A stretch of 63,096 nucleotides of DNA, filler included, from Reclinomonas americana ATCC 50394 (Eukaryota): assembly GCA_048213135.1 (NCBI GenBank). It is 8 parts of 8 records of this genome, joined end to end, with 100 filler letters (N's around TTAATTAATTAA, not from the genome) between each part and the next. Parts side by side here need not be neighbours in the genome. Positions count along the whole stretch, not along the records: positions 9,429 to 15,861 come from AFZH01020653.1; positions 15,962 to 23,987 come from AFZH01020654.1; positions 24,088 to 27,828 come from AFZH01020655.1; positions 27,929 to 56,726 come from AFZH01020656.1; positions 56,827 to 61,205 come from AFZH01020657.1; positions 61,306 to 63,096 come from AFZH01020664.1; 2 more parts are not named here. One strand, written 5' to 3'. The notes below the pieces were generated by a model, which saw only the letters and a program-made list of their open reading frames with translations, was not told the origin of the DNA and did no database searches. Made by a program: the position numbers and the translations under genes. The first letter of the stretch is position 1; each line of letters begins with the position of its first letter. This document shows positions 11,147-62,442 of this stretch, piece by piece.

Positions 11147-13208
11147 ATGTCGTTCAGAGAACTGAGAAGTTGCGGCGCTCCTCTCTCTGTGTGTGTGTGT
11201 TATGTTATGTGCTCATCTTGTGTGCGTGCGTGTATGTGTCAGACTTTGTGGAGAACTTGCGGGCGTTGGGGTACCCGCGGTCGGTGTCGATGGAGAGCTT
11301 TCGCTCGGCGAACTTTCGCATGATGGCTGAGATTGCCTCGTGGCTTGTGCACAAGTTGTGTCTGCTCTCTGTCTCTCTCTGAGAGGCCACTTTGGCGCTC
11401 ATTTTGAAGTCGTGGTGTTTGTTTGTCATTAGGTACGATCCGTCGTTGGATGTGCCGGTTGACATTGAGGACGAGGAGGAGCGTATTGCGTTTGTGCGCA
11501 ACGTGGCGCATGTGATGGTCAGTCTTGCTCTCACACACACACTCTTGCTCTTTGCGTCTTCTTACACGCTGGTTGAGCGCAGCTGACCAAGGCACACATC
11601 AAGCTCAACACAAAGAAGCTGTATGGCTCGGATGGATACGCAGTGAAGGAGCTGCTGAAGATCTCGTCGCTGCTGAAGCGCGCCATGGAGTCCAAGGATC
11701 AGCCGGTGCGTGGTCTCTCTCTCACACACACACACTCTTCAATCTCTCATGTGTCGCGAGAGCAGGATGTGACTCCGCAAGAGATGGAGCGCGGGGTGGT
11801 GGACACGAAGCAGACGCGCACGCTGGCCACGGAGCTCACCAAGCGCGGCGCCGACCTGTCGAAGCACCTGGAGCGCGAGGTCGAGCTGCGGGTGAGTTGT
11901 CATTATTTTGCGCGCGCGCCATGATTGCAGTGGTGTCCGATTTCGCGTGTCTCACGTGGGGCGTGTGTAACAGGAGGAGCGCCACAAGGCCAGCTCGCGT
12001 ACGATTGAGTTTGACGAGGTGGAGGCGTTTATTCGCGAGTTTCGTCGACTTGCTTGCACCACGCGGGGTGTTGTTGGGTGAGAGGGCCTCACTTCGTGCA
12101 TCGCAGGGACATTGAGAATGCACAGGAGGAGATGCGAAACCTGCGGGCGCGCATCGAGAACATGACGTCGGACTCGCGCAACTTGGAGCAGAAGATTGAG
12201 CGGAAACGTGGTGAGCTGGAGCGCGGCAAGAAGCGCCTCAAGTCGTACCAGAACATCCGGCCCGGGTTCATGGACGAGTACGAGAAGCTGGAGCGCGAGC
12301 TCAAGGGTCTCTTTGCGTTCTACGCCGACAAGTTCCGCACGCTGCAGTACTTGGAGAACGAGAAGCAAAAGTACGATACAGAGGAGGCGGCGCGGTTGGA
12401 GAAGGGCAAGAAGAAGCTGGAGGATTTGAAGGTCAGGGTATGAGTATTTAAGTAGGGTCAGAGCCCCATGGGAGCTGAACGTGCGCGCGTCTCTTCTCAG
12501 ACGCGACTGCGCGAGCAAGAACGCAAGCTGCTGGAGGGTGACACGCTGGGCGAGGACGAGCTGGACGAGGCCATGCGTTTCGTTTTTCTTACTGCATTTT
12601 CTCTCTTCCGAGAAGAAGTGCCCACTTTTTCTTGTCGCACACAGATGCCGTGTCAAGGCGTGCTGCGGGTGGTGCCGGTGGCGGTGGTGGTGGTCTGAAC
12701 AATGCTCACGGTGGTGGCGGCAGCGCAGGCGACTACCGGCAAGGACAGGGCGTCAGCGGCGTGCCTGGTCGGGGTGCAGCTGGTGGTGGTGGTGCGCCAG
12801 GCCGGGGCGGTGGTGGCGGCGGCGGCGGTAACGCAGGCATGGATGCATCGGGCGGTGCCGGCAGTGGCAAGAGAAGCAAGTCGCGCGCCATGAAGCGACC
12901 AGGCGCCGCGTCGTCACGACGCTCAAGAGGTTGGTTTTGTTGACAAGAGAAGCAGCAGGAAGCAGAGGGCGCAGCGAGTGTTCTGAACCCTTGTCTGTGC
13001 CGACACAGCACATGCCAACATGCAAGGCAACATGTTTGGCGGCAGCAGCGACGAGTCGGACGATGTCAGCGACATGGACTCGAGCGACGGCGAAGTCGAG
13101 ATTGCTGGCGGCGGCGATTCGGAAGATCTTTATGGCCTCGACGACGAGGGCGACGAGTCGGAGGAGGAAATTGATGACGACGAGGACGATGGCGATGTGG
13201 GCTTCTGA
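11147..13208 (+). CDS. CLUAP1: Clusterin-associated protein 1 / IFT38 (IFT-B), multi-exon
   Basis: Spliced product [32 protein letters not shown]...LTKAHIKLNTKKLYGSDGYAVKELLKI...KKRLKSYQNIRPGFMDEYEKLE, with an acidic tail ending DDGDVGF*. Confidence 0.95.
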
Positions 13209-13522
13209 GCAGCTCGGCTGCAGAATGTGTGTATGAATGAAAAAAAGCCGCTCCTTACGTAACATCATACCTTCGTCCTGCCCAGTCATCGTCCTGTCGT
13301 TCCCATCGCTTCTGACTGGCGTGCTTGGTGGTGAGTGAACTTCGCCCACTGTGTGCTTCCGTGTGTGCATGCGTCTGTGCTTGCATGCTTCTGTGTGGCT
13401 TCTGGCGGGGGCGGCATGTCGATCCGCACCATCAACTCTCTCTCACACACCCTCTCTCTCTCTCTCCTCCCCGTCTCCATCAGGTGTGTGTTAGTGAGTG
13501 TGAGTGTGCACAAGCCGCAAAC

Positions 13523-15802
13523 ATGCCACTTGGTTCCGACAATTGGTTCCGGTACGCACTCTGTGTGTTTATGTGTGTGTGTATTTTCGTGAATGAGGAT
13601 GCTAACATAGCACACACTCACACGCACACGTGCAGTCTGGGCACGGAGTCCAACTTTGTGTACTATCGGTGAGACAAGAGAGAGCGAGCAAGTGAGTGTG
13701 TGAGATGCAGGGGACTGAATGCAAGCGTGTGTGCGCGTTTGCAGCAAGCAAGAGATGTATGATTTGCCCTTCGAGACTCTCGGTCTCGACCTGTCCATGT
13801 TTATGGCTGCGGCGGCGCAGTTCGGTGGTCCTCTTGGTTGCGTATTCACTCCCTCTCTCTCACACACACACACACGCAATCGCTGACGCGTGGATGCAGC
13901 GCTCATTCGGCACCCGCGCAAGTTTGTCACGGGCGGTGTGGATATGAGCCCCAAGCTCCGCATCTTTACGTCGTCTGGCGAGCGGCTTGCCGAGATCCCT
14001 GTTGCGTTTTTCTTTGTCCTTCATCTCGTGTCACCGTTCCGCGCTCTCATCGCCACGCGCACAGTGGGAGAAGCGTGGCATTGTGGACATTGGGTGGTCA
14101 GATGAGGAGAATGCGGTGGTGGTGCTCGAGTTGCGTTTCCCTTTTTTCTTTACCGCCGTTCTCGGACGGGCACTGATCGTGCTGGTGGTCTCTCGTCAGG
14201 GACGGCTCGTGCATTCTGTTCAACTTGCACGGCGAGTTGTTGCACACGGTGTCGGTGACTCTGGTGTGTGCAGCAGTTTCAGTCTCCCGGTAATGGTGTC
14301 GATTGCACTCACTGCGGAGAGGCAATGTGGTGTGTACAGGGTGAAGATGATCGCGTGGTGGACTGCAAGTTCTGGCCGTCGGGTCTGGTGATGATGACCG
14401 ACAGTCTCAAGTTCTACGCCGTCACCAACTACTCGGAGCATCGTGTGCTCTCGCTGCCGGATCCCAGTTGCGACGCGGCGGTGTCATTGTTTATATCCAT
14501 GCAGTTATTCTCATTCGCGCTTCCCACCGCAGTGCTCATGGCTCGACCGCACTGCATGGCCGTCATCTCGCCGGCGTACACGCTGAGCGGTGGACCGGAG
14601 GTGCTCGTCGCGCCCAAGGCCATCTTCAGTGAGACGGGCGAACCGATTGGCGGCTCTGTTGTCATGATTGACATTGATCGCACGGAAGATCAGGTGAGGG
14701 TGTTGGTGGGAAGAGACGCAACCGACAACAAACGGTGCTTTGCCAACACGCACACCCGCAGGGTCTGGGTGGCGGTCCGTTCCTGGCCATGAGTGTGTCG
14801 CCGAGTGGGAGATACGTGGCGCTCTTTTGCAACAATGGCGTCATCAAGGTGACGGGTGCCGACTTTGCCAAGATTGTCACCGAGTTCGACACCAAGGGTG
14901 ATGTGCCGCCGACGCAAATGGTGTGGTGAGTGAGCCAAAGCGGCGAATCGACACGTGGGCATCTGCAGTGCGGCAGCGTGGTGTGCGTTCTCACCTGTCC
15001 TCCTTCCCGCAGGTGTGGCGAGGACACGGTGTGTTTGTACTGGGACCAGGAGGCCATGGAGTCCGACACCACGCTGGTGCTGATGGTGGGGCCGCACGGC
15101 TACTACGAGCGCTTCCTCTACGATTCATCCGTCCTGCTGGTGCCGGAGATTGATGGTGTGCGCATCTTTTCGAATTCGGTGTGCGAGTTCTTGGAGAAGG
15201 TGCCGCTGGGAACGGTGGAGATCTTCGAGGTCGGCTCCGTCTCGCCTCCTGCGCTGTTGTTCGACGCCTTCAAGGAGTTCAATGTTGCGTTCCCGTGGCC
15301 AAGGCGTGAGGGGGTGTTTTTTTCTCAACGATGCGGCGTGAGCAGGAGCGGAGTCCCAACGGCATCAAGCACATTCAGCACATTCGAGAGTCACTCGGGC
15401 CGGCCGTCGATGTGTGCATTGAGGCCGCCGGCAACGAACTGGACATCAGTGTGCAAATGGACTTGCTAAAGGTGAGCGAGAGAGAGAGAGAGGGAGGGAG
15501 AGGAAGGGTTAGAGCAGCACCTGATACATTGCGTGACACAGGCGGCGTCGTACGGCAAGGCATTTTGTGACTTTTACGATCTCGACAAGTTTGTGGACAT
15601 GTGCAAGTTCTTGCGTGTGTTGAACGCTTGCCGGCATCGCTCCGTGGGCATCGGCATCACCTACAAGCAGTTCGAGGCGTTGACTCTCCCCGTGCTCCTC
15701 GATCGCCTGGTGTACCGACACTTGCACTTGCTGGCGGTGAGGATATGCGACTACATGGACGTGCCACCGGACAAGGTCCTCGTGCACTGGGCATGTCGCA
15801 AG
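13523..15802 (+). CDS. VPS16: Vacuolar protein sorting 16 (HOPS/CORVET), 5' portion, truncated by the gap
   Basis: YYRKQEMY...AAAQFGGPLALIR...LRIFTSSGERLAEIPW...PPTQMVWCG...LVPEIDGVRIFS...LLKAASYGKAF...LRVLNACRHRSVGIGITYKQF...VLVHWACRK. Confidence 0.93.
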
Positions 15803-16968: not shown

Positions 16969-18331
16969 TCAGCGACGCTCTTCGCGCTCACGACGCCGCG
17001 ATCCTCCGCGACCAGAGGCGCGAGGCATGAGTTCCACGTCAATGGACTGCAATGGGCTGTTTCGGATGGCGCGCACAGACGTCACGCGTCCGCGCACAAA
17101 GGGAGGTCGCTTGACGCACATGTTGACGGCTTCGTCTGCGCGCTCCGCACGCAGCACATACTCGGACTTGCACGGCTTGTCGCTGGCGGCGTCGCGCTTC
17201 GCGTACAAGGCGTATGTTGGCGGCTCGAAGCAGCGGAACCACACTTCCTGACCTCTCAATCTGTGTTCACGCGATGAGTTTCCATGGACCGACTGCACAG
17301 TGGCCAGTGCTAGCAAAGCACGCAACTCTTCCGCTCGTCGCAAAGAGGACAAGTCTGTTACAGCACACTTGTGAGCCACCGCTGCGGCACGGGAAACGAC
17401 TCATCCAACCAAAAACTCGCTCACCAAACAAGACGGCTTCGGCATCGGAAAATGGCTCCTTCTCGTCGTCGTGTGCGGCCGCGCTTCCCGCGCGGGAAGG
17501 CGAAAAGGTACCCGACGCAGCGGCAGTGGTGGCAGTGGCACCTCCCAAGCCGGCCAACTCTCGCAGCTTGTCCGCTCCACGTCGCACATCGGCCTGCAGC
17601 CGCAACCACGGACTGGCGCGGTACAGCTCCTCCAGCTGCATCTCGAACTGCTCACGCGTAAACTGCACGTTCATCACAATGGTGGCCACCGCCCACATGT
17701 CGTCGACCGCCACACCCGCCTCCAGCATGACCTGAATGAGCAGGCTCATCTTTGGCGTGCCGTCGATCTTTGCCTGATTCGCCGCCAACACTCGCTGATA
17801 CTCCTCCGGCGACACGCGTCGATCAAACTCCAGCTCGCGCTGCGTCTTCAGCATGCTCTGCTTCTGGTCGCCGCTCTCTGCAAAGTGCCGCGCAAAGGCC
17901 GCCACAAAGAGACGATCAACCGACATGAGACCCGTCACCGCTTGCTCCGCCGATGGACCCGTCTGATAGCTCGGTCCCGCCGCCGCCGCAGCAGCAGCAG
18001 CAGCATTGTAGTGTCCGCCATGCGGAGGCGGTGACAGAGAATGCTGCGCGTGCGAGTCAGCAGACGCGACATTTCCACCAACGCTCACACACTCACTCAC
18101 TCATTCACTCACCGCTGCTGGTGGCGCCACTCCGCCTCCACCGACTCCTCCTCCCGCGCCTCCGTGTGCATAACCCCGCGCCGCCTCAAAGCCCGGCCCT
18201 GGCGGTCCATCGTTCACTCGCATGTGATGCATCCCATGCTGTGCCTGCTGGTAGTGCTGGCCGTAGTCACCGTGCCCACCTCCACCGCCACCACCGCCAA
18301 CACCACCGCCAACACCACCGCCGTAGCTCAT
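16969..18331 (-). CDS. Hypothetical protein with a Gly/His-rich low-complexity N-terminus
   Basis: ATG 18331 (MSYGGGVGGG...), a GTGAGT intron near 18110, and a long coding-like exon ~17280-18045. The 3' end is uncertain. Confidence 0.55.
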
Positions 18332-24267: not shown

Positions 24268-25336
24268 CGTCAACATTATCGAGATCCGCAAGGTGTCGAA
24301 TCCGAAGCTTGAAGAGCTCTTCCTGCGACGTCAGGCGGCCCTCGCTGCCGAGCTTGGCTATCCTGTGGAGCCGATTGAGCTGTACCACGGCACCGTGGAA
24401 GACGCCTTGCAGTTCATTCTGAAGCACAGGTGTGCTCATCCGGAGCTTCTCTCTCTCTCCCTCTCTCTCCCTCTCACTGCTCTGTTTACACAGCATGTTG
24501 CCGCCTGCCGATTTCAACGTCAATCAGAACTGCGACAATGCGCGCCGACTGTACGGTGCGCTTTGGCTGCCACTCATTTATGTGCGTCAGCTTCGTCGCT
24601 TATCTACTTTGTGTGTGTCTGTGTGTATGCGCAGGCGAGCAAAGGTCCAATCCGCTGTGCGATGTGGCGTGCCAGCATTGCGCCAGGGACCCGTCGCGAC
24701 ATCAGCGAAGCACACGGACACCGTGTCATATGTTTGGGTGCGTACGTTTGTGCATTGGCCACCACAATGTCGATGATTTTTCCACTGATGGGTGAAACGC
24801 GCAGACTCGGAGTGTACTTTGCGAGGCAGCTCGCGTTGCGTAAACGTTTTTTTGGCTTTGCGCTCTATTCCAAGAAAGCCACTCACTGTTTGTGTGTGTG
24901 TGTGTTCGTTGTGCAGGAAATCGCACCGGTACACTCATGGACCTCGTCGAGTAATATTGCGGTGCAGGGTGCTGCTCGGACGCCCCGAAGAGGTGCAGAA
25001 GCTGAATTCGGAGGCTGAGCGACATGACGATGTCGCTCCTGCGCCCGGCTATCACTCCGTGAAGGGCATCGGTCACGGCAAGAACGCGCCACGCGATCAC
25101 CTGCACCTGGTCAACGACGAATGTTGCGTGTGTGATTTGTCTATCCCTGTCTGTCTGTGTCGCGACTCACCCTTATTCTTCTGTCTCGCAGACATGTTGC
25201 GTCGAGACGGCGAACATCTTGTTGTCTTCTGTGTATGTGTGTGTCCGCGACTGACCTCTTCGTTCTCGTCTCGCGCAGTATCTTCCACCCGTACCAGCTG
25301 CTGCCGGAGCTCGTCATCATCTACAACGCCAAGTAA
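24268..25336 (+). CDS. PARP/ARTD catalytic domain, tankyrase-like, H-Y-E triad (3' exons)
   Basis: Spliced: IRKVSNPKLEELF...LYHGT...CHMFGLGVYFARQLAKSHRYTHGPRRVILRCRVLLG...GYHSVKG...NDEYIIFHPYQLLPELVIIYNAK*. Confidence 0.88.
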
Positions 25337-27528: not shown

Positions 27529-28597
27529 ATGCACGCACACAAGCGAGTCATCCCCGTCGAGAGCGGCGACGATTCCCCGCTCTCCGGTGTTTCTGTCGGC
27601 GACGAAGGCGTCGGCTCCAGCAGCCATGCGGTGGGACGCAAGGGCGTGTCGGCGCCGGCGGCGGCACGAGCGCCTTCGCCAGCCACAGTGGTGAAGCGCA
27701 TGATGTGGGACGGGCAGCACTCGGCAGCCGCCAAGAGCATCTTCTGGTTCGGCTGCTATCTGTGGGTCATCGGCCCGCTGATGTTCTTCATGCCACGTCT
27801 AGCGGTCGTCACCTCGTTCCCGGATCTTNNNNNNNNNNNNNNNNNNNNNNNNNNNNNNNNNNNNNNNNNNNNTTAATTAATTAANNNNNNNNNNNNNNNN
27901 NNNNNNNNNNNNNNNNNNNNNNNNNNNNGTCGCGCGGCTGCCGTACGAGACGTGGCTGATTGTGGAGCCCATGGCGCGCGTGACGGGCTTCATTGTTGCG
28001 TGTGCGTGTGTGGGAGAATCTCCTGGATGTGTTTGCGAGATGTCTTTGCCAGAGTGAGAGAATTTCTTCTCTCTCTCTTTCTGCGTGCGACTCACGTGCA
28101 CTCACACCGGTGGTATACCACCAGGTGTGCGTCTTTGCGTACTACTACGTGCGGACATCGATGCGCGAAATGACTGACTTTTTCCGCTTCACCGTGCACG
28201 TTGCGTGTGCATCGTCTGCCTTTTGTTTGCTTGCTTGCTTCCCGAGACTCTTACGCGACGTCGGCGTTTCGTGTGTGTGCTCGCAGACCCGCATGTTGCG
28301 TCATGATGGAAACATTCTTTTTGGGATCGCTCCGATCTCCCCCTCTCGCTGCGGTATCGATTCTTACCTCCCTGGCATGCAGGTTGGTTCCCTTCTTGTT
28401 CGCCGCTCTGTACTTGGCCGGAGTTTTGCCACTGTTGCGCGTGTGTTATCCCCTTCGGCCCCCCAGTTCCCACCCACCCACCCACCCACCCCCTCGTCGT
28501 GCGCAGGAGTCAAGTGCTGGCTGGCGTCGGCGACGGCCTCGGCGCGCTGTGGACGGCTTTGGCCCTCAAAAAGGACGGCCACAAGGTATTCGTGTGA
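27529..28597 (+). CDS. Small membrane protein (about 4 TM), resembles an uncharacterised bacterial membrane protein family; spans a gap
   Basis: SAAAKSIFWFGCYLWVIG...MARVTGFIVCVFAYYYVRTSMREMTDFFRFTVHTRMLVPFLFAALYLAGVLPLSQVLAGVGDGLGALWTALALKK. Four introns restore the frame. Confidence 0.75.
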
Positions 28598-40600: not shown

Positions 40601-41106
40601 ACACTGAGAACTGCAGTCCTTGCAGCACCAGCGACGCACTCGACGAGGTGAACGCCGGTAGCGAGGTGGCCACCAGGTGCACGCCGCCGACCGTGGTGCT
40701 ATTCAGCAACACTCGCGACTGACCGAGTCCATCCAGCGTCAGCGACGAAGTCCCCAACGTGTACACTCCGTCGGTGAGAAGCAGCGTGTAGTCGCCAGTG
40801 CACGATGCAAACGTCATGGAGGTGAGCGCCGTACCCAGCGAGCAGGCCGTCGCAACATCCGCACCACAAGGTGCGTTCGTCAATCCCATCGGCGACACAT
40901 TGACTGCGGCCGCGGGGGAAGGTGAGAACGAAGATGCTCTCACGCCAGCAAGTGCATATGTGTGCGTGCACGCAACTCAGACACGATGTCGCGGCGTCCA
41001 CTGCCACAAACGTCAGCGTAATGCTCAGCAGCAACGCGGCTATTAGACATGGGGGTCGACGACGCGCATGACGACCGCCGAGAGGAGGTGGCATCACCAC
41101 TCGCAT
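28671..41106 (-). CDS. Giant intron-rich membrane protein: signal peptide, PMP/POMP-like beta-helix repeats, Cys-rich region, multi-pass TM C-terminus
   Basis: Hydrophobic N-terminus (LIAALLLSITLTFVAVDAA). Many FxxN...GGA[ILVM] motifs (STFLSNKAAVDGGAMYV, YFSNNIAMTRGGAI). CxxC motifs near 30400-30650. PLYLNYRPNMIYWEALQLLRRVILL in the TM domain. Stop at 28671. Confidence 0.82.
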
Positions 41107-43492: not shown

Positions 43493-45991
43493 ATGGACTG
43501 GAACCCGGCATTGCGCTTCCTGTCAACACTCACAGTACATCGCACACACACGCAGAGACAGAGACATGGGCATTTCGGGCTCAAGTGGAAGGCAACTGGT
43601 GCTGGAGGTGCGGGCAATGCGTTTTCTCCACAGATGCACACTCGGGGGGTTTTTGTCCGACGCCACTCTCTCTCTTTCTCTCTCTCTCTGTATGTGTGTG
43701 TGCAGGTGGTGGAGCGCGACATTGAGGACACACACGAGGAGGTCATGGTGCTCACGTATGACACGGATATCCGTGAAGCACCGGGTGCGTGGCACATCAT
43801 TTTGTTGTTATGTATGTCTCTCTTTGTTTCCTCCTCACTCATTTTTCTGCAGCTCATTGGCGTGCTGCGCTTGGTGATCGTGCTCTGGAAGCGCTGCTTC
43901 AACGTTGCGTGACACAGAGACCTTTCATTCACTCTCATTGACATTGATTATTTTCTCCTGTCTCTCTCGCACACAGAACCCGCTCGTGGCGTTGCGTCTC
44001 TCAGTCTCACACACACACAGACACAGACACACACACTCATGTCTTCAATTATCGTCGTCGCACACAGATCCGCTGGTGTGATGTGAGAGAGGGTGAGCCA
44101 CTGGCTCCGCGTGTCAAGTTTGTGGTGCTGGTTTCGCTGCAGGAGGAAGGCCATGAGTCTGGAGAAGAGGTCAATTCACATCCCGGCTCCTCGCGCAGTG
44201 GTGGAACGACGATGACTGACTTTATTTGTGTGCTGGGGCGTGCAGGCCAAGGCGCGGATTTCGCGAGACTTGCGACAGGTGCACCATTTTGTGGCCAGCC
44301 AGCGTGTGCGGTCGCTGTCGTTGCCGCTCTTCGTGTACACTGTGTTGCCGCCGAGGGAGTTGTGTAGTGTGATGTGCTGGCATGTGTGGGGGAATTGCAG
44401 GCTGACGTGTGCACGCCGCAGAGTCGTCGAGGTGTTTGCGTCGGAATTTCATAGGGCATTCGAGTACATTGGCACCGGCGCCGCCGATGCGGCAACTCAA
44501 CTGACCCGTGTTGTGGTGTGCGTCAAAGGTGGCGGCAAAATACGGCAGGTGAGTGTTGGAAGCTGTCTCGGGAGAGCGAGTGCACTGCTATGTCGCTGAA
44601 TCTGCATTGCCTCGTCCAGCTGTTCAGCCAGTACATTGCGAGCATGTTCCCGCAAGAGGCCGCTCCTCCCGTGTGGGAGCTGTTCTTCTCCGATCGCCAG
44701 TGGTACTCGCTGAAGCAAGAGGTATCCGACTACATCGAGAGTGCGACTGGTGACCTTGTTCCGCTGCGCATCTGCCCGGCGCCCGACAATCACGAGTGTC
44801 TGCGCGTCCTTGTTTGCCGCTCGCGAGATGAGGTGTGCACACACGCACACGTATTCCGTGCACTCATCAGGTTGACTGACTGTATTCCCTCTCCTCCTTT
44901 GTGGTTGTATCGCAAGGTGGTGGACTTTACAGCCAATCAACGGTATGCGATCCGGCGACGCGAACCCGCGGTGCCGGTGCGATCACAATCTTCGCCTCCG
45001 ACTTCGTCTTCGACACCAGCTGCCGTGGCAGGATCTCAATCGGCGGCACCACCGAATCCTCCCGCGGCAGCAGCAGCACTGACATATGTATCGTCCCCCT
45101 CGCCACAGTCACCGCCACGGCCAGCACCTGCAGCCGCCGCCGCCGCCGCAGCAGCAGCAGCAGCTCCGCCTCCTGCGTCCCCTGCGCAACAAGCGCCTGC
45201 ATCGCAAGCAATGTTCGATACTGTACCAGAGGTGAACGTCTGTAGGCTTTTCTGGTAATGCGCACGTGAAGCTCTAACAACCTGTCTGTTGTTGCGATGA
45301 CAGGTGTTTTCGCGGCACAGTGCGGCGGAGCTGCATCCAGTGCACCTGACGTGGATGAAACCTGGAGGTGCTTTTGTCAAGGGCGTCTTTGTGCGCGGTT
45401 CTTGGGATAGGTATCAGCAGGCGCTTCGTCTTCGTGCCGTGGGGCACGATCGCTACGAGGTGACACTTCGAGTGCCGGCTGGGTTCTACTTCTACAAGGT
45501 CAGAACACACAATGTGTACTGTGCTCTTGAAGCCACGCTAACGGAAGTCTGGTGCAGTTCACGGATGACCAGTCTGCCACGCTGGCGAGCGAGCGTATCA
45601 AAGTGGTCAAGGAGCAAGGGACCCTGCTTCCCTTCCACCCACTGCATGTGCCTGTGACGTTCAGTGTGGCTCGACAGCACGAGCGACAGCACACCGTGCT
45701 GGAGTTCTCAGCCTCTAATGGTTACTTTCTGTGCGCATTCTTTCCGAAGACCGATGAAGGCGAGGCACTGGCGCGAGCTATCCAGGAGAAGAGCAGGTTG
45801 CGAGCGTGTTTTTCGTCTTTTTCTTTCTTACCGAGTGTTGAGCAGACTTGTCCATGCACAGCCAAGTACCACCCGATCCTGTCGTCTTCTTCACTGGCCG
45901 TTGGCATGGAATCGAACTGAAGACGGAACCATCGCAACTACCGGACCCACAGTGGTGCGCGGCAGCACTGGACCGAGTGTCGGCGCTTTAA
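43493..45991 (+). CDS. Protein with a C-terminal CBM48/AMPK-beta-type glycogen-binding module
   Basis: HPVHLTWMKPGGAFVKGVFVRGSWDRYQQALRL...YEVTLRVPAGFYFYK|F matches the CBM48 pattern. It is preceded by a Pro/Ala linker. The start is tentative. Confidence 0.6.
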
Positions 45992-48719: not shown

Positions 48720-50410
48720 ATGAGGTGGTTGTCGAGCCAAGCCACTCGGGCTCCTGCCGCGTTTTTCGATGTGTGCATTGCCGGTGGCGGGTTGGCCGGC
48801 TGTGCATTCGCCGTGGCTCTTCGTTGCGCGTTCTGTCTCTCCCACTCTCTCACTCCTCCTCCTTGCACAATCTCAAGTTTAGATGATTCGCAGAGGCGCA
48901 TCCCATGACACGGCATCTGCGCGTGGCCATCGTGGATCCCGCTCCCTCATCACCTCCGCCCACCAGCACCGCAGACAGCAGCACACGAGTGCATTCGATT
49001 CGCACCAGTGCACTCACTCCATCGTCGAGACGATTCTTTGAGCGTTGCGTTGTCCACACACCAGTCTCTCTCTCAGTCTCACGTTCTCTCTCACATGCAT
49101 GTGGCCCGGGGAGCAGAGAGTGGTGTGTGGCCACGCATGGAGGAGCTCGGTGCCTCGCCATTCCATCACATGCGCGTGTGGGACGAGGTCGGTGGCGGCA
49201 CAATTGGTTTCGACAACTCCAAGTCGCCGCTGGCACACATGGCGGAGAATGACCGCCTGCAGGAGGCGCTGAATGAGCGACTGGGCGACGACGCGGTGAC
49301 GTGGTTCCGCGGGCTCGGAGTGAAGAATGTGAGCGGAGTGTTTCAGCATGCCAGTCCGGCGGCCACTGTGCACTTGACGAACGGGACCACCATTGATGCC
49401 TCCTTGCTGGTGTGCGCTTGCCATGATGATAGTGATGTAGCTGGTTTGCTGATGGGTGGGGCATGCAGGTGGCCGCCGACGGTGCTGCGTCGCGAGTGCG
49501 GCAGTGTGTCGGCATTGCGTCCACGTCGCGGGCGTATGGGCAAAAGGCGGCGGTGGCGAGTGTGGTGCATGAGCCGGTGGCGCAGCGTACTGCGTATCAG
49601 CGATTCCTCACCACCGGTCCACTGGCGTTGCTGCCGCTCACCGACACCGTGAGCAATGTGGTGTGGTCGACGACGGTGGACGAGGCCGACGAGCTGGTGG
49701 CGTGTGCGCCCGAGGAATTCGTGCGCCGCGTGAACGATGCCTTCACGCGGCCCACCGCCGCACCACCAGTGTCGGGTGTGTCGGCTGTGCTGTCGGCCAT
49801 CTTCCCTCGACCCGAAATGATTGCCGGCGCTCCGTTGCCGCGACCACCACAAATATTGCAGTTGGAGCACCCGCAGCGTGGCGCGTTCCCACTGCAGCTG
49901 ATGCACGCACAGCGATATGTCACTCATCGGTGTGCGCTGATTGGGTGAGTTGTTGGTGACTCGGGGGGAAGAGTGCATGCCCGTGTTGTGACTCTTGCGC
50001 ACTGGTGCACAGCGATGCATGCCACGTGGTGCACCCGTTGGCCGGCCAGGGCCTCAATCTCGGCCTCGGCGATGCCGAATCGTTGGCCCGCGTAATCGCA
50101 CGCACGGTGGAGACCGGTGGCGACATTGGTGCAGTGACGGCGTTGGAGGACTACGAAAGCGATCGGCGACCCACCAACAGCATGATGACCCTCGGCATGC
50201 ACCTTATCAAGGGCACCTTTGAGACGAATCAACCGGCGCCGTTCGCCATGGCTCGCAGCCTCGGCATGTCGCTGCTGAACAATCTCGATTTCGCCAAGGT
50301 ATACTTGTTGTCGAGATTGTGTGTGGGGGGACGCGATTGGTGACTCTCATCTGGGTGCGCAGCGTCTGATCATGCAACAAGCGTCGGGCGAGAGCGCGCT
50401 GCGAAGATGA
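48720..50410 (+). CDS. COQ6: Ubiquinone biosynthesis FAD monooxygenase (UbiH/COQ6 family)
   Basis: DVCIAGGGLAG, VAADGAASRVR, AYQRFLTTGPLALLPL, FPLQLMHAQRYV, DACHVVHPLAGQGLNLGLGD; short mitochondrial-like presequence. Confidence 0.9.
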
Positions 50411-50585: not shown

Positions 50586-53018
50586 ATGAGCGCAGCCGAC
50601 GACGCCGCACTTGACAAGGTGACACCAACAACAAAAACGCACTTCCGAACTCACTCACTCACTCTCTGCCATGCAGTATCTGGGCCAAGCAGTGCCCGAG
50701 CAGGCCTTTGAGGTTGCACCAAAGGAGGGTACGTGCATTCACAGCAACAGCGCACTCCACACTGCTCGCAACTCACGCACACGCGCGCGCAGACTGCCCA
50801 CACGTGTTTGATCACGTGGTGTACCCTGCGCGAGAGCGTTACGAGGAGGTCTTTGATGGTTTGTGAGCCTCTGTACATGTGCGTGTGTGACAAGGCACAG
50901 TTGTCTCAGTGCTGATCGCTCCTCTCATTCAGTGCATCGACCATGCGGCACGTGCGGTCACGTGGGCGAGAACTGGTGATCATGAGTCGACATGCGATGC
51001 GATGATCTTGCTTGCTTGCGCGACTGGCACTCACGCGGCAGTGTGTGCAGGTTGAACTTGCAGTCGCACGCAGTGCAGTGCTCTCGGTTACGTGCTTCCC
51101 TTCACGCGCGGACAGTGGATCGCTTGGCACTCACGTACACAGTGTTCTGTTGTTCGTGACAGGTACATTCAGGGTCACATGGTGGACCACTATGCGGCCA
51201 CGCGTGGCGAGTCGGGCGAGACCAACTGCATCGCCTGCAGCTTCACGGATCTCAGTGTCGTTGCGTGCCTGCTGCTGTTGCTGCGTGTTTGGTTCCGATT
51301 TTTCCGACGCACTCACTCCATTCTCGTGTACTGCAGTGGTGCTACAAGGTTCCTGCTTTTGATGCTTGTCACTCACACACACCACACTTGCCTTTCGCTC
51401 GTTGTCTCACTCGTCGCTGCATCGCCCTTGGCAGTGTGATTCGTACATCAAGCATCCGCGCCTGACTGCGGCTCTGTCGCAACTGCACTTGTCCAAGTTT
51501 GGGCACTTGCCTGCGGGAGGTTCGAGTGATCCTGATGAGAGCTGAAACGTGCGGCTGTGGCCATCAATGTACCAACCTCTTCGTTTTGCCATCTGTTTCT
51601 TTTTTCCTTCCTTGTTTTTTTCGTGTTGGCAGTGGCCGCGGTGGAGGACGTGGACGACGCAGAGGAGGGTGGACCGCCGCCGACCGTCGAGCAGGTTGCC
51701 GAGGGCATCAAGCGAGGCGATTGTTGCGTGCGTGTACGTGGTGCGCAGTTGCGCCTTGTGCTGACTTCGCCGTCTGCAGATCGGCGCATCGTGGTGTTGA
51801 CTGGTGCCGGCATCAGCACGGCGGCTGGCATTCCCGACTTCCGCACACCCGGCACGGGCCTGTACGACAACCTCGCGCAGTACGATTTGCCGCGTCCGAC
51901 GGCCGTCTTTGAGTTGGAGTTGCGCACCAGTCCGCGTATGCTCTATGCCTACATCGCAGCTGATCGTCTCTGTCAGGTTCTTCCTGGCCAACCCACGACC
52001 ATTCTACAAGCTCGCCAAGAGTCTGTTCCCGGGCGAATACAAGGTGTGCAGTGGAGCTCTCGCGTCATATAGACTGCTTGCTCGCGAGCTCGGGCTGACT
52101 CCGTGGTGCTTGTTGTAGCCGACTCGTGCACACTGCTTCATCCGGTTGCTGAATGATCGCGGCCTCCTCTCCCGCAACTACACTCAGTTCCGTGCACCGG
52201 TGGCATGAATATCGATCGCAGAGCGACAACTGACAATGCGTGCGCGCGTGTGCAGGAACATTGACTGCCTGGAGCGGTCGGCCGGTGTGCCTCCCAACCG
52301 CGTGGTCGAGTGCCACGGCTCCTTCGCGTCGGCCTCGTGCACCCGATGCCGCAAGGAATACCCGCCAGCGGTCGTCAAGGGTACGCGTTCTCCCGTGTGG
52401 CGTGAGTACTGGTTGTCGACGCTCACCGACCATCTCGTGCAGCGGCCATTACTGCCGAGGAGATTTTGCACTGCTCCGAGTGCGAGGGTCTGGTGAAGCC
52501 CGACATTGTGTTTTTCGGCGAGTCACTGCCGGAGCGCTTCGAGCAGGCGCGGCTCGACTTGCCGCAGGCAGACCTGTTGATCGTCATGTTCGTCACTATC
52601 GTTCTCTCTCTCTTTCATCGTCATCGCTGCGTACGCTCACAGTCGCACCTGTGACAGGGGCACTTCGCTGCGCGTGGCGCCCGTCTCGCACCTGCCGTCG
52701 CTGGTCGGCCGCCGCGTGCACCGCTTGTTCCTCAACCGTGAGCCACTGGCAGGTAACGTGGCGCTCCACTCAGCACCCTTGCCTCTCATCGCCGTCATCC
52801 TTACCGCCCTTTCTTCTCTCTTTTTGCCGTCAACAGCTCGGTTCCAGCGTGATGCCGCTAACAGCACCGATGTGGAGATGCTGGGCGACATTGAGGATTC
52901 AGTGACGCAGCTGGCCGATCTGCTGGGGTGGCGCGAGGACCTGGACGCGGTGCATGCCGGCCTGCACGCTGCTGCAGGCGACGAGGCGGCGGGTGCCAGT
53001 GGCAGCGGTTCCGACTGA
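50586..53018 (+). CDS. zf-UBP (BUZ) domain fused to a class I sirtuin (SIRT2/3-like)
   Basis: DCPH...[11 protein letters not shown]...[12 protein letters not shown]...SFTDLSVWCYKCDSYI...HLSKFG, then [49 protein letters not shown]. Confidence 0.88.
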
Positions 53019-54074: not shown

Positions 54075-55496
54075 TTATGCATGCTTCTTGTCCTCTGCAT
54101 CGTTGCGCACCTTTGCCGCCATGCCCCCGAGAATCGAAATCGCCAGTCTCTCGCTCAGCCATCTGCCGGGTCGTCGTGAGAGAGAGACGCGAGCGATTGC
54201 ACGATTGCAGCAACAAAACACGCAACGTCGGCACCAGAGTCAAGGCCATCAATTGCACCTGGTGCGCCCAGTACGGCATGAAGCTGTTGGAGCCTCGGGC
54301 GACGCAAGCAATGGCCGAGCGCGCAAAGGTGCGGGCCGAGCACTCGAAGGTGGTCTCCTTGGTGACGTGCTTGCTACTGAGCGGCGTCACCACGGTCGCC
54401 GGCAACACCGAGGCCACTCGGACCAGCGGACCGTACGGTCGGCATTCAAGCGACAGGGCACGAGAGAAGAAGTCCACAAACGCCTTGGTGCCGCAGTAGA
54501 TCGACAGGTAGGGGCTCGGCATGAGACCGACCATCGACGACAGGTTGAGAATGAGCCCGAGCCGGCGTTCGCGCATGCGCGGCAGCACCACGTGCGTCAT
54601 GCGCAGCAGTGACTGATTATTGAGGCGCAGCGTGCGGCACGAGGCCTCCACATCCGTATCGGCCACCTCTGCGCACCACCACCACGCACATCAGCACCTC
54701 GAGCAAACCAACCAGCCGCGAGTGCACCACACCTCGCATGTCGGCCTCGTTGCCGCCGACATTGTTGACCAGCAGCGTCACATCCAACGGCGCCAGGAAC
54801 TGCTCCACCGCAGCGTAGGTGCCGTCGAGATCAGGCGAGCTAAAGTCGACCGACAGCACACGACTCTCCACGCCGTGATCTTGCAAGTGTGGAGGTGAGA
54901 AGCGCGCGACAACTCAACGAAGAAAGGTTATACTGTACTCACCACGTCGAATGTCGGCAGCAATGGCCTCCATCTTGACGAGTGTGCGACTGATGATGGC
55001 CACGTTGAAGCCGAGAGCGGCCAGCTCCAGCACAAACGCCTTGCCCTGCGCGTGTGAGAAGAGAGAGACAGGTCATCGCCAATGACACATTCACACAGCA
55101 CAGGATGCAAGAGTCGCAACAATGCCGTCGGAGCCACCAGTCACTGCATGCAACATGAGACACACACACGAGAGGCATACAGCACAGGAGAGGCACAAGA
55201 CTCACCGACCGCCCACACGCCCTGCAAGAGTGCACACAATGCAATCATCAGTCACACATTTCTCCGCATTCTCTCTCTCACACACACACACACTCGCGCA
55301 CTCTGTCTCCTCTCTCACGCCCACGTGTGTGCACCTTGCGAGGCATCCACGGAGCCAGTGCCTTGCGCAGATTCTCATCCTTCATCGGTCCGAGCACCGA
55401 GAAGCGCACCCATTGCACAGTGACCCACACCCACTTGGCCACAATCAGCGCGCCCACCACGCCAAACACCCAACACAAGCCGCACGTGACTGACAT
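54075..55496 (-). CDS. SDR, very-long-chain 3-oxoacyl-CoA reductase type (HSD17B12/IFA38-like)
   Basis: N-terminal TM, WAVVTGGSDGIGKAF, LLVNNVG, YCGTKAFVDFFSRAL, and a C-terminal KKHA* ER-retrieval (KKxx) motif. Confidence 0.88.
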
Positions 55497-55547: not shown

Positions 55548-56522
55548 TCACAAACGGTGAATGGTGTGGTGATCGGTGACGGCCGACAAGTTGTCGAGTG
55601 AGTCCCAGATGCGATACAAGAACTGCTCCTGGATCTTGAAGAACCAGGGTGAGAGCAGCACATCGTGGCGATCGGCGTCGCGAATGAAGTGCTGCATCTC
55701 CTGCTTGGTAAAGTATCGCGTCTCCTTGATCTCGTTCGGGTTGGCCTCGTGCGACACGTTCTTGCGCACCACCAAGATGTGATCGACTGCATAAAGGAGG
55801 AGTGTGACTACATGAAAGGCAGTTGCTTGGTTGGTCGTTCACGCGCGCAACTCTCGTGCTCGCCCCACACGCCATCCGACGGCGCCATGTAATGCAACCG
55901 CGTAATGTACGTCATGTCGTCGGTGCTCACATCGGTGATGCTGAGCTCCTGCTCCAGCTTGCGCACTGCTGCTCTCTTCACGCCCATGTTCTGCGGCAGC
56001 TCGCTGTCCATCTCCTCCGGGTAGAATAGCGGGTGTGAGCAGCACGTGTTGGTCCAGTAGCCGGGGAAGGTGATCTTGGAGTCGGCGCGCTGGTGCATCA
56101 GCAGCCGGTTGTGCGAGTCGAAGATGAACACGGAGAAGGCGCGATGCAGCATGCCCTGGCTGATGTTGCTCATCAAGTGGCCTGCCCAGCATTCAGCACA
56201 TTGTGCATGCAACATGCAGAGGGAATCGATGCACGCAACAGGTCTGCTTGGTCGCACTGCCAATGGGACTATCGTCGATATCAACCAGAATGCACTCCTC
56301 CTTCATCAGTGCCACCTGCACGGCATCAAAGCCCTCCAGCTCCGGGTCGACGGGCTCCAGCGGTCCTTCGGTCAGCGCGCTCATGCTCTTCCTGCGTGTT
56401 CCTAATGGCGATGCGACGCTTGTCAGAGTGCGTCTCCACAGGCCACGACTACTACTACTGATGGCGAGAGGAGAGCGAGTGCGAGCGAGGAGAGAGAGGA
56501 GGCTGCGCGACATGTGCGCCAT
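55548..56522 (-). CDS. IDI1: Isopentenyl-diphosphate delta-isomerase type 1
   Basis: EECILVD...CHLM...LHRAFSVFIFD...QRADSKITFPGYWTNTCCSHPL...WGEHEIDHIL...SPWF...TIHRL*. Confidence 0.96.
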
Positions 56523-57594: not shown

Positions 57595-60500
57595 TCAGGT
57601 GCGAAGTTGGGCGCCCGGTGACGCGGGCGTCACTACTTGTCGTGCCTTGCCCGCCGAACCGTACTTGAGTGCCGAAAACGCTCCCTGAGAGCGCTTCAAG
57701 CGTGCAAAGGGCGACCCTCCGTTGGTGGCGTCGCTCTCGGCCGCTGCCGCTCGCTCCCGGGCCTCCTGTTCTTGCAGTCGAGTGGCCTCGAGAGCCACGA
57801 GCATGGCCGCATGTCGCTGTGTTTCACACACACGTCAGCACAGCAGAGAAAGAGGCGGATGAAGATACAATATGCACACTGAAGAAAAATCACCATTTCC
57901 TTGGTCTCCGGATCGGCATCGGTGGGATCGGTTGAGTCGAGCGAATCCTCCGACACTGTCGAAGCTCGCGAGGGTGCAGTGGGAAGCGGCTGCGGCGTGC
58001 GGCCAAGAGAGCACTCCTTGGCACACGCCAGTTCATTGTACAGCGCCGCCACGGCGTGGTCCATGGTTTGCATCTGCCAAACACATGAGAATTTCACCAG
58101 CCAGTTTCGCCCCATCAAAAAAACAAACAAACCTTGCAAGTGAGGAACTCGTGCAAATGTACCATGTCGTTCAGTTCCTCCTCGCTGGCCTCGTCAGTCG
58201 GGATCTGCAACAGCTTCTGGAACGAGTGCAATTCGCTCGTCGTGTCGTGAAGTGTTCTCGACAAGACGGCGCGGAAAATCTGTCACGACGGCGTCAGCCA
58301 CTCGCCCGACCTGCGCAGCCGCTGCATTCGCCACACCGACTCACCTTGGCCTGCGTGAGATGCTTAAACGCCATGGCCACGTCAAACTCGGCATCAAACT
58401 GCTTCATCGACGCCGCGACTTGCAACGGTGCCGCGGCAGCCTCGGACGACACAATGCCAACCGCCGCTCGAATGGAGGCGCGCTGCAACTCCTTCCGCAA
58501 CACCGTGTTCTCTGCCGACGCTTGTGCCAACTACAAAACACACCGAGTCAGTCAATAATTGAATCACAAAGGGAAGTCTCTGCATCTCGTCACGCAACTT
58601 GGTGCTGCGTAAACTCGAGTTCCACATTGAGAATGTGCTTGTCGGCCTCCAGCATGTTCAGGCGCAACTTGAGCTCACGAGTGAGGTCGGCCAGTCGTCG
58701 CGAATCGTCGTCTTCCTCGTCGCCACCCTCTGCACTTTGCTTGCCAGCCGCTGCGCCAGGGCTGTCGCCACTGGCCGTCGCCGACTCCTCCGCAGCCAGG
58801 GCACTGGTGGCCTCGTTGCCGGGGGCCGGTGGGGGAGACGACTGCAATGCTCCAGCCGCCGCCGCAGCAGCAGCAGTGGCGATTCGAGTGCGTGGCGTCA
58901 GTAGTATGGGCGACCACTTGTTCTCCATCTGTCTTCTGTACTCGAGCTCGATCAGATCGTCGGGACTCGGTTCCGTTTGCTCACCTGCGGGTGGCGTCAG
59001 TCAGCGCCTTCTTCACACAAATCACAACCAACCACACGGCACTGTGCACGCACGTTTCAGTTGCTGCACGACATCTGTCATGTGTTTCAGCTCGTCGCGC
59101 AGCTCCGACTGTGCACGATCGGTGCTCGCTCGGTGCTGCTCGAAAGCCGATCCCGCAGCACTCATGGCCTCGGATCTGCAAACGGTCCCACAGTCATCAT
59201 GGCTGTCATTGGGTAGCAGATCCTCTCCCCTCCCTCACCTTGCCGGCGATCCGCTGACTGTGGTGTGCATCAGCAACACGTCGGCACGCAAGCGCTTCGT
59301 CTCCTCTCGCAGTTGATCGATTTCGCCGTTCTTCAGCTGCAGGATCTTGATCCACTCTGAACAACACACCTCACATAAGTGCACAGACCCTCACACAGTC
59401 GCGGCGGCGGCGAGGCAATGCGCACACACCAGCAGTGAACGGATCAGCGTGCATCGCGTCCGACACATCGGCATCTCCTAATCTGTCGACCGCAGACGGA
59501 GCGACCTTGGGCGGTGCACTGGTCAACGAGTGCATCTCCTTTAGCTGCATCTCCAGCGACATGACCTGCGGAGCGAGGTAACTCTTTTGAGCATCACCAC
59601 GAAAAGAAGAATTGAGACACTGCTGCAAACCTTGCGCTCCAGCGACATGGTCTTCGTGTCGTGCTCCAGCTTCATCTGATCGCGGGCAATTTCGGCGTCG
59701 GCCAATTGCTGTGCCAAGTGCCGCGACTCCTCGCGTGCGTACTCCAGCTGCGAGGATGCGTGCAGAGTCAGATGGCATGTCAATCAGCCTGGCACACAAG
59801 CGCATCGCACCTGCAAGTTTGCCTGCTCCAGCTTTCGGGTGACCTTCCACTTGGCCACCTCCAGCAAACTCGCCTCATCCCTCCACCTCTTCTCGTTCTC
59901 CTCGTGCTCCCGACGCAGCTGTTGGTAGCCTCTCACCACGTGAGCACACAAGATTGCCGACTATATCACTCTGCCTCTATTGCCTCCCACTCTCTTTCCT
60001 TATCTCTCACACCTTCCCATGTTGCCTCTCACTCTCCTTCTCCTGTTTCTCATTCTCCCTCCCTTGCCTCTCACTCTCCTCCTCTTGTTTCTCACTGTCC
60101 TTTCCTCATCTCCCACACCCGTATTTGCTCACCTGCTGCTGCTTCAGAAACAGCTTGGCCACCTCGCCCTTCCATCGCAGCAAGTGACCCTCGGCTTCGG
60201 CGTACTTTTCCTGCAGCTCTGCGACCTCCTCGCGCAACTGGATCACCCACCACCCGCACAATGTGAGACCACACAACCAGTTTCACCATCGCGACGCCAC
60301 GACGCACATTCTCCGCATCCATCGCCGCCTCGGCCGACTGCAACACCGAGGCACGAATGCGCTCCGCCTCGGCCTGCTCCAGCTGCCGAACGCGAAACTC
60401 CTTGGCCTTGACCTGCGTCCCACAACGAGAGTGAGCACACATCCTCCCTCTCTCCACACACATGCCACTCACCTCCTGCTTCAGCTCCTCCACCTCCACG

Positions 60501-61313: not shown

Positions 61314-61362
<49 letters not shown>

Positions 61363-61695
61363 TTCTGGTCTTTCTCTCTCTCACACACACAACCAAACAA
61401 ACAAACTCTCTTTTCCACTCTTTTCCCCTCTCTGCCTCTCTCTTGTCTCTCAGTCACAATTACACCCTCTCTCTCTCTCACACGCACTGCCCCTCCTTCG
61501 CTTCCCGGATCCCACTGCTCTCCTTCTTGTTCTGTATTTCTCGACGATGATATGTATTTCTCTTGCACTCGCTCCCCTTTTCCTTCTCCCTTTCACATAA
61601 TCAACTCCAGTGCATACTGCCTCTTCCCGTTGCCTTCCCCTCTTCCTCCCCCTGTCTTCTCTCCCTTCCCCTCTTCCCCTTCCCCTCTTACTCAC

Positions 61696-62442
61696 ATCCA
61701 TCTGCGCCCATATACATGGATCCTCCTTGAGCTGCCGCACCCACATGCACTGCGGCTGGAAGAAGCGCGCTCGAATCAATCCCTGCATGTCCGGATCGAT
61801 GCGGATCCAGTGAATGTTCGAGTCGTTTCTGTTGGGGAAAAACGAGTCAGCAGAGGACAGCATTCGGTGCTCGAAAAACAGCAGTCCCATCGCAACTGTT
61901 CGTCGAGTTGCGGCTCAAAGTCCTCACCAGCCTTCAGATACTTTTTCGGCTTGGAGGCGCACTCGTAGCGCTGCAGAATGTACTTGCGATTGACGTTGAC
62001 GAGGCATGTGTATCGGCGCGTCTTTTCTTCCACGGCAATGTTGAGAGGGATCTGCGTCGAGACCAAAGTGTAAGAGCAATGTGGCGCACATACACACACA
62101 CATGCACATCACTGCATGTGGACGCACCGAGGCCTTGGAGTCGGCAAAAATGTGCGCATTCAACACATGAATGCCGAATGTGATGACGTTGAGACGGTGA
62201 TCGTAGCGGAAGCTGATCTCCATCTCGGGACACCCCTTTCCGTACACCCACAAAGCAAAGAATTCGGTGAAGACGGGATCGATGCGCGACAGGGCCTTCT
62301 GCAGCTCCTTAGTCCCTAGCCGCCGATGTGCCACTCGCTCGGCGTTCTGGGCGCAGGCTTGCAGCGTCTGGCTGATCATCTGCACGTGGAGAAAGAGGCC
62401 ACCATCAACACAACAGGCAGAGCCTTTCCCTCTCTTCTCTCT

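Follow-up and report, generated by a model that had tools for sequence, protein, structure and literature searches.

Human 5′ splice sites that are read by U1 in a shifted register were reportedly described by Roca and Krainer in 2009, and U1 registers with a bulged nucleotide reportedly by Roca et al. in 2012; the human shifted sites number a few dozen. U12-type introns have the donor /RTATCCTT and the branch site TCCTTAAC, and introners are mobile introns that occur as repeated copies in certain algae and protists. In the available part of a study of atypical human sites by Tan et al. (2016), all pairs between the 5′ splice site and U1 move by one position in the shifted register, and the test oligonucleotide reads ACA|GUCAAGUAUA, with A at −1 (PMC4856993); the shifted register is also treated in a review, of which excerpts were available (PMC9311317). 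In Archamoebae, according to the accessible portion of the work of Roy and Bowser, donors and U1 have co-evolved, Entamoeba GUUUGU being matched by U1 ACAAAC and Mastigamoeba GUGCGC by U1 ACGUAC (bioRxiv 10.1101/2022.06.08.495308). The present analysis concerns 5′ splice sites reading GTTGCG(T) in a stretch of 63,096 nucleotides (nt) from Reclinomonas americana ATCC 50394 (assembly GCA_048213135.1), hereafter the window. An earlier model reading of the same DNA without database searches (the sequence-only reading) had listed 28 such donors and proposed that they form a major second class, read one nucleotide out of register.

The GTTGCG(T) donors are confirmed as real, and the second class is the first class moved by one base, from −1 to +8. 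We give an even chance to the reading that behind them lie short GT..AG introns of the usual kind, removed by the major spliceosome with the cut at the G of GTT, and that U1 would recognize their 5′ ends one nucleotide out of register.

Introns placed from the GT of the donor

The window is eukaryotic nuclear DNA with 58% G+C; about 80% of third codon positions in the confirmed exons are G or C, codons ending in A or T being rare. Because open frames alone cannot place introns in DNA so rich in G+C, where many frames are open, two approaches were used that knew only the GT of the donor. As tblastn runs through stop-free introns, a spliced aligner of protein profile to genome was written for the purpose, in which any GT..AG pair 30–600 nt apart was allowed at one fixed penalty. 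The VPS16 profile was built from 40 homologs and the sirtuin profile from 45, and CLUAP1 was aligned to P0276 of Diphylleia rotans, the sole full-length homolog, and also to a weaker homolog and to a four-sequence profile. A word-indexed protein search with a VPS16 exon gave no match, and a search of sequencing runs with 10 kb of the window listed no RNA data set. The second approach was a Viterbi parse into exons and introns on codon log-odds, run donor-blind or with a learnt table of donor hexamers. Training of the parse was limited to positions beyond 10.5 kb, since earlier self-trained parses had been captured by the region at 1–10 kb. The donor-blind parse found 7 of the 28 listed donors and the parse with the learnt table 16; the latter also recovered 10/10 VPS16 introns. 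Introns were counted as high-confidence if they were 45–110 nt long, ended in a C/T-AG acceptor, belonged to a gene scoring at least 40 and lay beyond the first 10.5 kb, which were excluded for their odd composition. The donor-blind set so defined holds 96 introns. The curated set, which combines the donor-informed parse with homology, holds 95 after 11358 was dropped as a duplicate of 11355; figures for the flanks at −1, +7 and +8 use the 96-intron curated set before that removal.

The motif GTT[G/T/C]CG, or GTTGTG, is present at all 28 listed positions. As donors these positions fall into several grades: 12 were placed by donor-blind spliced alignment (VPS16 5, sirtuin 3, CLUAP1 4), one by residue continuity, five by the ab initio parse alone (25123, 25196, 54226, 56239 and 61896) and four by junction-spanning motifs (55120, 24835, 48823 and 49044), and six (27995, 28200, 28295, 28434, 45797 and 51260) are candidates only.

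In VPS16, on the plus strand, the alignment yielded 10 introns of 62–87 nt, all ending in CAG. Five have GTTGCG donors and are exactly the five listed earlier; the other five donors read GTGAGA, GTGTGT, GTGAGG, GTGAGT and GTGAGC. The spliced product of 482 amino acids is stop-free and aligns end to end with its homologs at about 40% identity. The GTTGCG introns lie at 13837..13899 (GTTGCGT, phase 1), where the junction codon gives A as in 31/32 homologs at that column; at 14001..14064 (GTTGCGT, phase 0), where the first codon after the intron is a conserved W; at 14130..14199 (GTTGCGT, phase 2); at 14467..14532 (GTTGCGA, phase 1); and at 15284..15345 (GTTGCGT, phase 0), where the residue just ahead of the donor is the last one of the Pfam Vps16_N match.

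The sirtuin alignment, also on the plus strand, gave six introns. Among them are 51723..51779 (GTTGCGT, phase 1), 51919..51976 (GTTGCGC, phase 2) and 52187..52255 (GTTCCGT, phase 2), the junction codon of the last giving Q as in 44/45 homologs, and an intron with donor GTTCGT at 52588. The CLUAP1 introns on the same strand are less uniform in their support. Intron 1 at 11169..11242 (GTTGCGG, phase 1) was placed by alignment to P0276, the junction codon giving N as in the homolog. The intron at 11355..11432, with the donor GTTGTGT and thus T at +5, was placed by the P0276 run and the four-sequence profile, the ab initio parse having taken the in-frame 11358. The intron at 12039..12106 (GTTTCGT) came from the P0276 run, one of three, and from the ab initio parse; the models from the weaker homolog and from the four-sequence profile differed in part, for example in having 12027 instead of 12039. 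For 12577..12644 (GTTTCGT) the donor came from homology and the 68-nt acceptor from the ab initio parse, the homology runs differing in their acceptor (introns of 152 or 167 nt). In IDI1, on the minus strand, the exons flanking 55787..55851 (GTTGCGC, phase 1) correspond to residues 46–154 and 156–230 of human IDI1, and the split codon is residue 155.

That the junctions are misplaced, and that the motif belongs to coding or intron sequence close to the real donors, is hardly credible. The 13 listed donors fixed by homology were placed without the use of the motif, each is followed by CAG after 57–87 nt, removal of the GT..AG introns restores frame and homology, and junction codons restore conserved residues. 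What speaks for misplacement is that six listed sites are candidates only, that two pairs of sites need exons of 4 nt and 8 nt, and that at high G+C, with many frames open, open frames prove little.

If U1 kept its normal register and the cut fell after the G, the introns would read TT..AGN. The two readings were compared at the junction codons of five junctions where they differ. Three junctions give the conserved residue only under GT..AG (the A found in 31/32 homologs, the W and the N), one was uninformative, and one, in the sirtuin gene, is taken up below. The later cut was rejected, as three of the four informative junctions and the invariant 3′ CAG favor GT..AG.

Two donor classes and the proposed register of U1

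As a plain word GTTGCG is not enriched: there are 33 copies on the plus strand and 50 on the minus strand, against first-order Markov expectations of 33.5 and 39. The signal is where the word sits, not its abundance. In parses that had no model of the donor, GTTGCG led the donor hexamers whatever the intron penalty (22/358, 14/141 and 12/84), and it supplied 14/96 donors of the donor-blind set and 20/95 of the curated set, compared with 83/8714 GT sites (0.95%; binomial p = 6e-13 and 3e-21). The shifted class as a whole, GTT[GTC]CG, ranges from 19/96 donor-blind to 24/95 curated introns. The claim that the shifted register is mainstream thus stands at some 20–25% of the introns found in the window. 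The share among homology-aligned introns, 46% when pooled (11/24; VPS16 5/10, sirtuin 3/6, CLUAP1 3/8), is inflated because those three genes were chosen for being cited.

The sequence-only reading had also expected two donor modes, with G at +5 or at +6, and both are found: of the 95 curated donors, 56 have G at +5 only, 28 at +6 only, five at both and six at neither. An unsupervised mixture was fitted over −3 to −1 and +3 to +8. By the Bayesian information criterion (BIC), two components beat one matrix in both sets (2241 vs 2331 donor-blind, 2096 vs 2259 curated) and three components were worse than two, so that in this window the donors are not a single degenerate class. The consensuses are AAG|GTGCGTGT (or AAG|GTGTGTGT) and CGA|GTTGCGTG, and the second takes in every GTT[GTC]CG donor. 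Donors with T at +3 have G at +5 in 8/34 cases, the others in 53/61 (p = 8e-10). The ten other T+3 donors (GTTGGT, GTTCGT, GTTTGT and others) have G at +5 in 8/10 and G at −1 in 5/10, and behave as ordinary ones.

Homology also fixed donors with C at +3 (GTCAGT and GTCAGG, at 11518 and 12432 on the plus strand) and a GTACGC donor (52381, plus strand); the ordinary class itself thus tolerates variation at +3 and +4 but retains G at +5. Such donors, together with GTTCGT and GTGTGC, all recovered by homology, speak for the idea that there is no special register at all, only one loose requirement for GT and a G near +5 or +6, read mainly by U6, U5 or proteins, with GTTGCG as a frequent word; that GTTGCG is not avoided in exons fits the same idea. 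We regard it as quite improbable. A single matrix is worse by a BIC difference of about 90 (donor-blind) or 163 (curated), the bases at −1, +5, +6 and +7 change together, and GTTGCG makes up 15–21% of donors vs 0.95% of GT sites.

On the sense strand of the modelled genes the heptamer GTTGCGT occurs 22 times: 15 copies are called donors, two are 24835 and 49044, two lie in long doubtful introns and three are exonic, one of these being 51260. It is the heptamer alone, with its T at +7, that exons seldom contain, most exonic copies of GTTGCG having no T at +7. Sense exons hold fewer copies of GTGAGT (1 vs 6.0) and of GTGCGT (3 vs 7.1) than codon shuffles do, a depletion that avoidance of cryptic donors would lead one to expect.

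The flanks carry evidence beyond that of the sequence-only reading, in the form of a signature on the exon side. G at −1 is found in 1/24 shifted vs 47/62 ordinary donors of the curated set (Fisher p = 6e-10), in 0/19 vs 44/67 of the donor-blind set (p = 8e-8) and in 1/11 vs 11/11 of those placed by homology only (p = 3e-5). Instead, the shifted −1 is A in 12/24 and T in 7/24, a composition like that of the ordinary −2 (p = 0.32) and unlike that of the ordinary −1 (p = 6e-9). Downstream, the shifted +8 resembles the ordinary +7 (p = 0.95) and the shifted +7 the ordinary +6 (p = 0.18), with T at +7 in 19/24. The consensus GTTGCGTG from +2 on matches the local G|GTGCGTG from +1 on, except at +5. 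The class is thus not simply the ordinary GTGCGT plus one T, as the sequence-only reading described it, since C is near-fixed at +5. Shifted and ordinary introns are alike in length (medians of 68 and 70 nt), in acceptor (CAG in 23/24 and 58/62) and in G+C content. A CTGAC-like CTRAY motif resembling a branch site, 10–40 nt upstream of the acceptor, occurs in 9/24 shifted and 16/62 ordinary introns, at 18 and 21 nt, but is loose in both classes.

Loss of G at −1 fits a shift because the intron G+1 then sits where exon G−1 normally pairs. The same intron-side motif would fit equally well a bulged register, in which G+1 and U+2 pair normally, U+3 bulges, and G+4 to U+7 pair as the ordinary +3 to +6 do; human sites with the bulge at +3 (or +2) are on record in the available sections of PMC4856993 and PMC9311317. 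Under a bulge, however, the exon −1 would face the same U1 base as before and G should stay favored there, yet it drops in both sets as given above. It is also below coding background in the shifted class: the phase-0 shifted donors end on the codons CCT, AAT, CAA, GCT and GGC, four of the five being rare A/T-ending codons. The bulged register is accordingly judged improbable, and the flanks suggest, without proving, a shifted rather than a bulged U1.

In the shifted register, the intron G+1 would take the place normally held by exon G−1 against U1. U+2 would face the U1 base to which G+1 pairs in ordinary donors, a mismatch if that base of U1 is the standard one, and U+3 G+4 C+5 G+6 U+7 would lie in the places of the ordinary U+2 G+3 C+4 G+5 U+6. 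Where to cut would be settled at a later step, through the GU and through U6, U5 and Prp8, in the way put forward for the rare shifted sites of humans. Given that +5 is almost always C, the U1 base opposite the ordinary +4 is predicted to be G, in a 5′ end of the ACGUAC type as in Mastigamoeba; a shifted helix with one mismatch at U+2 already could not afford a second, which would hold C at +5 nearly constant. The rarity of G at the ordinary +4 (1/62) is compatible with a G in U1, but weakly so. That U1, and perhaps U6, reads the offset, and that its 5′ end has this form, we infer from the donors. Individual genes would then carry two 5′ splice-site codes, with some three quarters of introns in the usual register and about one quarter one nucleotide off, through the same U1 tolerating the U or a second U1 with a changed base; for this arrangement, too, we see the chances as evenly split.

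One form of it, that a second, variant U1 serves the class, is taken by itself to be unlikely. If such a variant had, for example, A for C at the base that meets G+1, it would be fully complementary to A|GUUGCGU, and the ordinary U1 would serve G|GUGCGU; geometrically the helix would still be shifted, made by a dedicated RNA. The class is as tight as a fully complementary guide would select (C at +5 in 20/21, T at +7 in 19/24, A at −1 in 12/24), and co-evolved U1 5′ ends in Entamoeba and Mastigamoeba (bioRxiv 10.1101/2022.06.08.495308, in the portion accessible) and human variant U1 genes, in the literature as excerpted, offer precedents. On the other side, the window holds no match to a small nuclear RNA (snRNA), and donor statistics cannot separate a second U1 from a single U1 that tolerates one mismatch. 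Searched with Rfam, the window gave no snRNA match at gathering score; at E ≤ 1 it gave only three weak microRNA or small nucleolar RNA matches, taken as chance.

Several observations weigh against a U1 shifted by one nucleotide, or against the scale given to it here. The case for U1 pairing consists of donor statistics. If the 5′ end of U1 is standard, C at +5 adds another mismatch to the first, and A (as in GTTGAGT, comparable to human GUUAAGU) should do better; since the base is C and not A, a plain shift needs an extra assumption. GTTG[N]G has C in 20 donors, T in one and never A, whereas the ordinary GTG[N]G has C in 14, A in 15 and T in 11 of 40 (p = 6e-6), and with C near-fixed at +5 the shifted class is no plain mirror of the ordinary one. 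Sense exons show no shortage of GTTGCG (10 copies vs 6.1 in codon shuffles), which counts against the hexamer alone as a strong signal. At sirtuin 51723 the junction codon under GT..AG is TAT (Y), whereas 24/45 homologs have C and a cut one base later gives TGT (C). The ab initio parse supplied roughly three in four introns, and its error rate is known only from the 10/10 of VPS16; the class sizes are those of one 63-kb window; and the three genes with homolog sets were chosen because they had been cited.

Further donors, genes and features of the window

Of the remaining listed sites, the intron at 24835..24916 (GTTGCGT), in the PARP-like gene on the plus strand, gives the junction GVYFARQL^AKSHRY, which is support at the level of a motif, the PDB and Pfam matches being weak. 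In that gene the ab initio parse placed a further intron at 25196..25278 (GTTGCGT) and a candidate in-frame intron of 69 nt at 25123..25191 (GTTGCGT), which may simply be retained. A PDB search returned nothing for the upstream exon of IDI1 or for a PARP exon, only E ~0.1 for PARP10. Tandem GTTGCGT introns occur at 25123–25278, with a 4-nt exon at 25192–25195, and at 28200–28382, with an 8-nt exon at 28287–28294; these could be micro-exons, alternative donors or the step-wise removal of one long intron.

The COQ6-like gene (plus strand) has two phase-1 introns within its COQ6-like N-terminus, one at 48823..48893 (GTTGCGC), placed by frame restoration, with an upstream exon that carries GGGLAGCAFAVAL, and one at 49044..49116 (GTTGCGT), for which the ab initio parse uses the same acceptor at 49117. 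Directly upstream, at 47704–48497 on the same strand, is a gene for ribosomal protein uL5 (Ribosomal_L5_C) with three predicted introns, the donors of which read GTCTGC, GTGCGT and GTGTGT. On the minus strand, the short-chain dehydrogenase gene has an intron at 55046..55120 (GTTGCGA, phase 0) with the junction TGGSDGI^GKA, where the Pfam adh_short match starts at the first residue of the exon, and one at 54163..54226 (GTTGCGT) from the ab initio parse. The other IDI1 intron, 56182..56239 (GTTGCGT, phase 1), was also parsed ab initio, and the exon downstream of it aligns to human IDI1 from its own first residue (chain residue 46). The intron of the TAF2-like gene at 61829..61896 (minus strand, GTTGCGA) appeared in the ab initio parses, including the first donor-blind one.

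The candidate sites comprise four GTTGCG words (27995, 28200, 28295 and 28434) within 27995..28506 on the plus strand, in a membrane-protein gene with no Pfam match and weak coding scores; 45797..45861 (plus strand, GTTGCGA) in the CBM48 gene, which has G at −1 and is supported only as a frame-compatible candidate intron of 65 nt; and 51260..51336 (plus strand, GTTGCGT), upstream of the conserved sirtuin core and outside the alignment, which starts at 51683, and read as exon by the parse.

Seven shifted introns that the sequence-only reading had not listed were called on the minus strand. The one at 58531..58598 (GTTGCGT) was found by the donor-blind parse and by that with the learnt table; those at 40904..40976 (GTTGCGT), 32003..32089 (GTTGCGT), 31544..31620 (GTTTCGT), 31360..31427 (GTTGCGT), 29646..29703 (GTTGCGT) and 17261..17326 (GTTGCGT) came from the ab initio parse. 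The intron at 32003..32089 belongs to a multi-exon gene at 28671–32761 (minus strand) with Chlamydia polymorphic-membrane-protein repeats (Pfam PF02415, open reading frames (ORFs) 32042–32647 and 32584–32904), for which 15 introns were predicted, four with GTTGCG and one with GTTTCG donors.

Seven blocks of N, at 6492–6591, 9329–9428, 15862–15961, 23988–24087, 27829–27928, 56727–56826 and 61206–61305, each consist of 44 N, TTAATTAATTAA and 44 N. From this structure the window is taken to be a string of eight contigs with six-frame-stop spacers between them. Contig ends interrupt genes, and adjoining contigs are not necessarily neighbors in the genome; VPS16 stops short at 15808, and its C-terminal half is absent downstream in the window. 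Positions 1–10500 differ in composition from the rest, with 61–64% G+C and an AT skew of +0.2 to +0.25, and hold long overlapping ORFs on both strands, up to 876 amino acids on the plus strand. A TIG/IPT domain lies at 8637–9254 on the minus strand. Pfam searches of all 270 six-frame ORFs of at least 70 amino acids in 1–34 kb returned only Cluap1, Vps16_N, TIG and Chlam_PMP matches, along with sub-cut-off matches to DUF7491 and Lebercilin, both on the Cluap1 ORF; a further Pfam scan covered 120 ORFs of at least 28 amino acids around the cited genes. Near a contig end, at 23908–23977 (minus strand), there is a sub-threshold match to two microRNA precursor families (28 bits vs gathering scores of 69 and 90), taken as chance in repeat-rich sequence. 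For VPS16, CLUAP1 and the sirtuin, the best named homologs are scattered over protists (Stygiella, Guillardia, Diphylleia, Cavostelium, Gefionella, Phalansterium, Entosiphon and Anaeramoeba), and the homolog searches with these three proteins found no near-identical protein.

Meaning and comparison with described splice-site systems

If the shifted register held genome-wide, it would provide a natural system in which U1 binding and the choice of cut site are uncoupled at thousands of introns, and the fixing of the cut site after U1 leaves, together with the slack in U6 pairing, could be studied on native substrates instead of a handful of human sites. A rare mammalian oddity would be a routine, selected part of the splice code of a lineage, and the exon-side signature, A or T and almost never G before the cut, would constrain codon choice at exon ends. 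It would bear on the co-evolution of snRNA 5′ ends and donors, which in the accessible portion of the Archamoebae study is backed by only two related lineages (bioRxiv 10.1101/2022.06.08.495308). Gene finders trained on one donor matrix would be expected to overlook or misplace around one intron in four in this genome. The parse without the learnt donor table recovered fewer of the cited donors than the parse with it (7 vs 16 of 28).

U12-type introns resemble the present case in having a second donor consensus alongside the main one in the same genes. Here, however, the shifted introns share their length and CAG acceptor with the ordinary introns, and the loose CTGAC-like branch motif occurs in part of both. 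A U12-type origin was rejected, as the donors read GTTGCGT and the 3′ parts carry CTGAC- or CTGAT-like motifs, not TCCTTAAC; Rfam found no U11, U12 or other snRNA in the window, which says little. Introners, likewise, can make one donor motif suddenly abundant. They were rejected because an all-against-all comparison of 96 intron bodies showed no similarity beyond simple repeats: 23 pairs reached E ≤ 0.001, and among the 20 of these that were listed, one was the same intron twice (11355/11358), one an overlap of predicted introns on opposite strands (16365/16403), and the others matches of 14–25 nt read as CA/TC-type simple repeats.

The Archamoebae share with this window T at +3 (the norm in Entamoeba) or C at +4 (the norm in Mastigamoeba), and the work on them shows that the 5′ end of U1 can evolve to fit atypical donors. 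As far as the available text of that study goes, each has one transformed consensus, in register, whereas here two consensuses offset by one base coexist. Introns are also denser here, the first 482 codons of VPS16 holding 10 or more, vs 3.4 per gene in Mastigamoeba (PMC8136499, from the portion available).

Together with the in-register co-evolution in Archamoebae, the human non-canonical registers are the closest parallels, judged from the available parts of the sources cited above. Like bulged sites, the donors described here have one extra nucleotide between the GU and the downstream G and would be read in a non-canonical register by the major spliceosome; unlike the +3 bulged sites, they nearly lack G at −1, which a +3 bulge does not predict. 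With the human shifted sites they have in common a GU at the cut, a consensus one base downstream, a −1 position that is not G and a cut that stays at the GU. They differ in frequency, the human sites being atypical whereas 19/96 to 24/95 introns are of this kind here, and in having C, not A, at +5. A motif-based literature search returned no such donor class among the matches listed; the organism's own genome paper or its supplements might describe one. Relative to the known systems, what is new is that two registers coexist inside individual genes, that the shifted one accounts for between a fifth and a quarter of introns, and that it bears an exon-side signature of its own.

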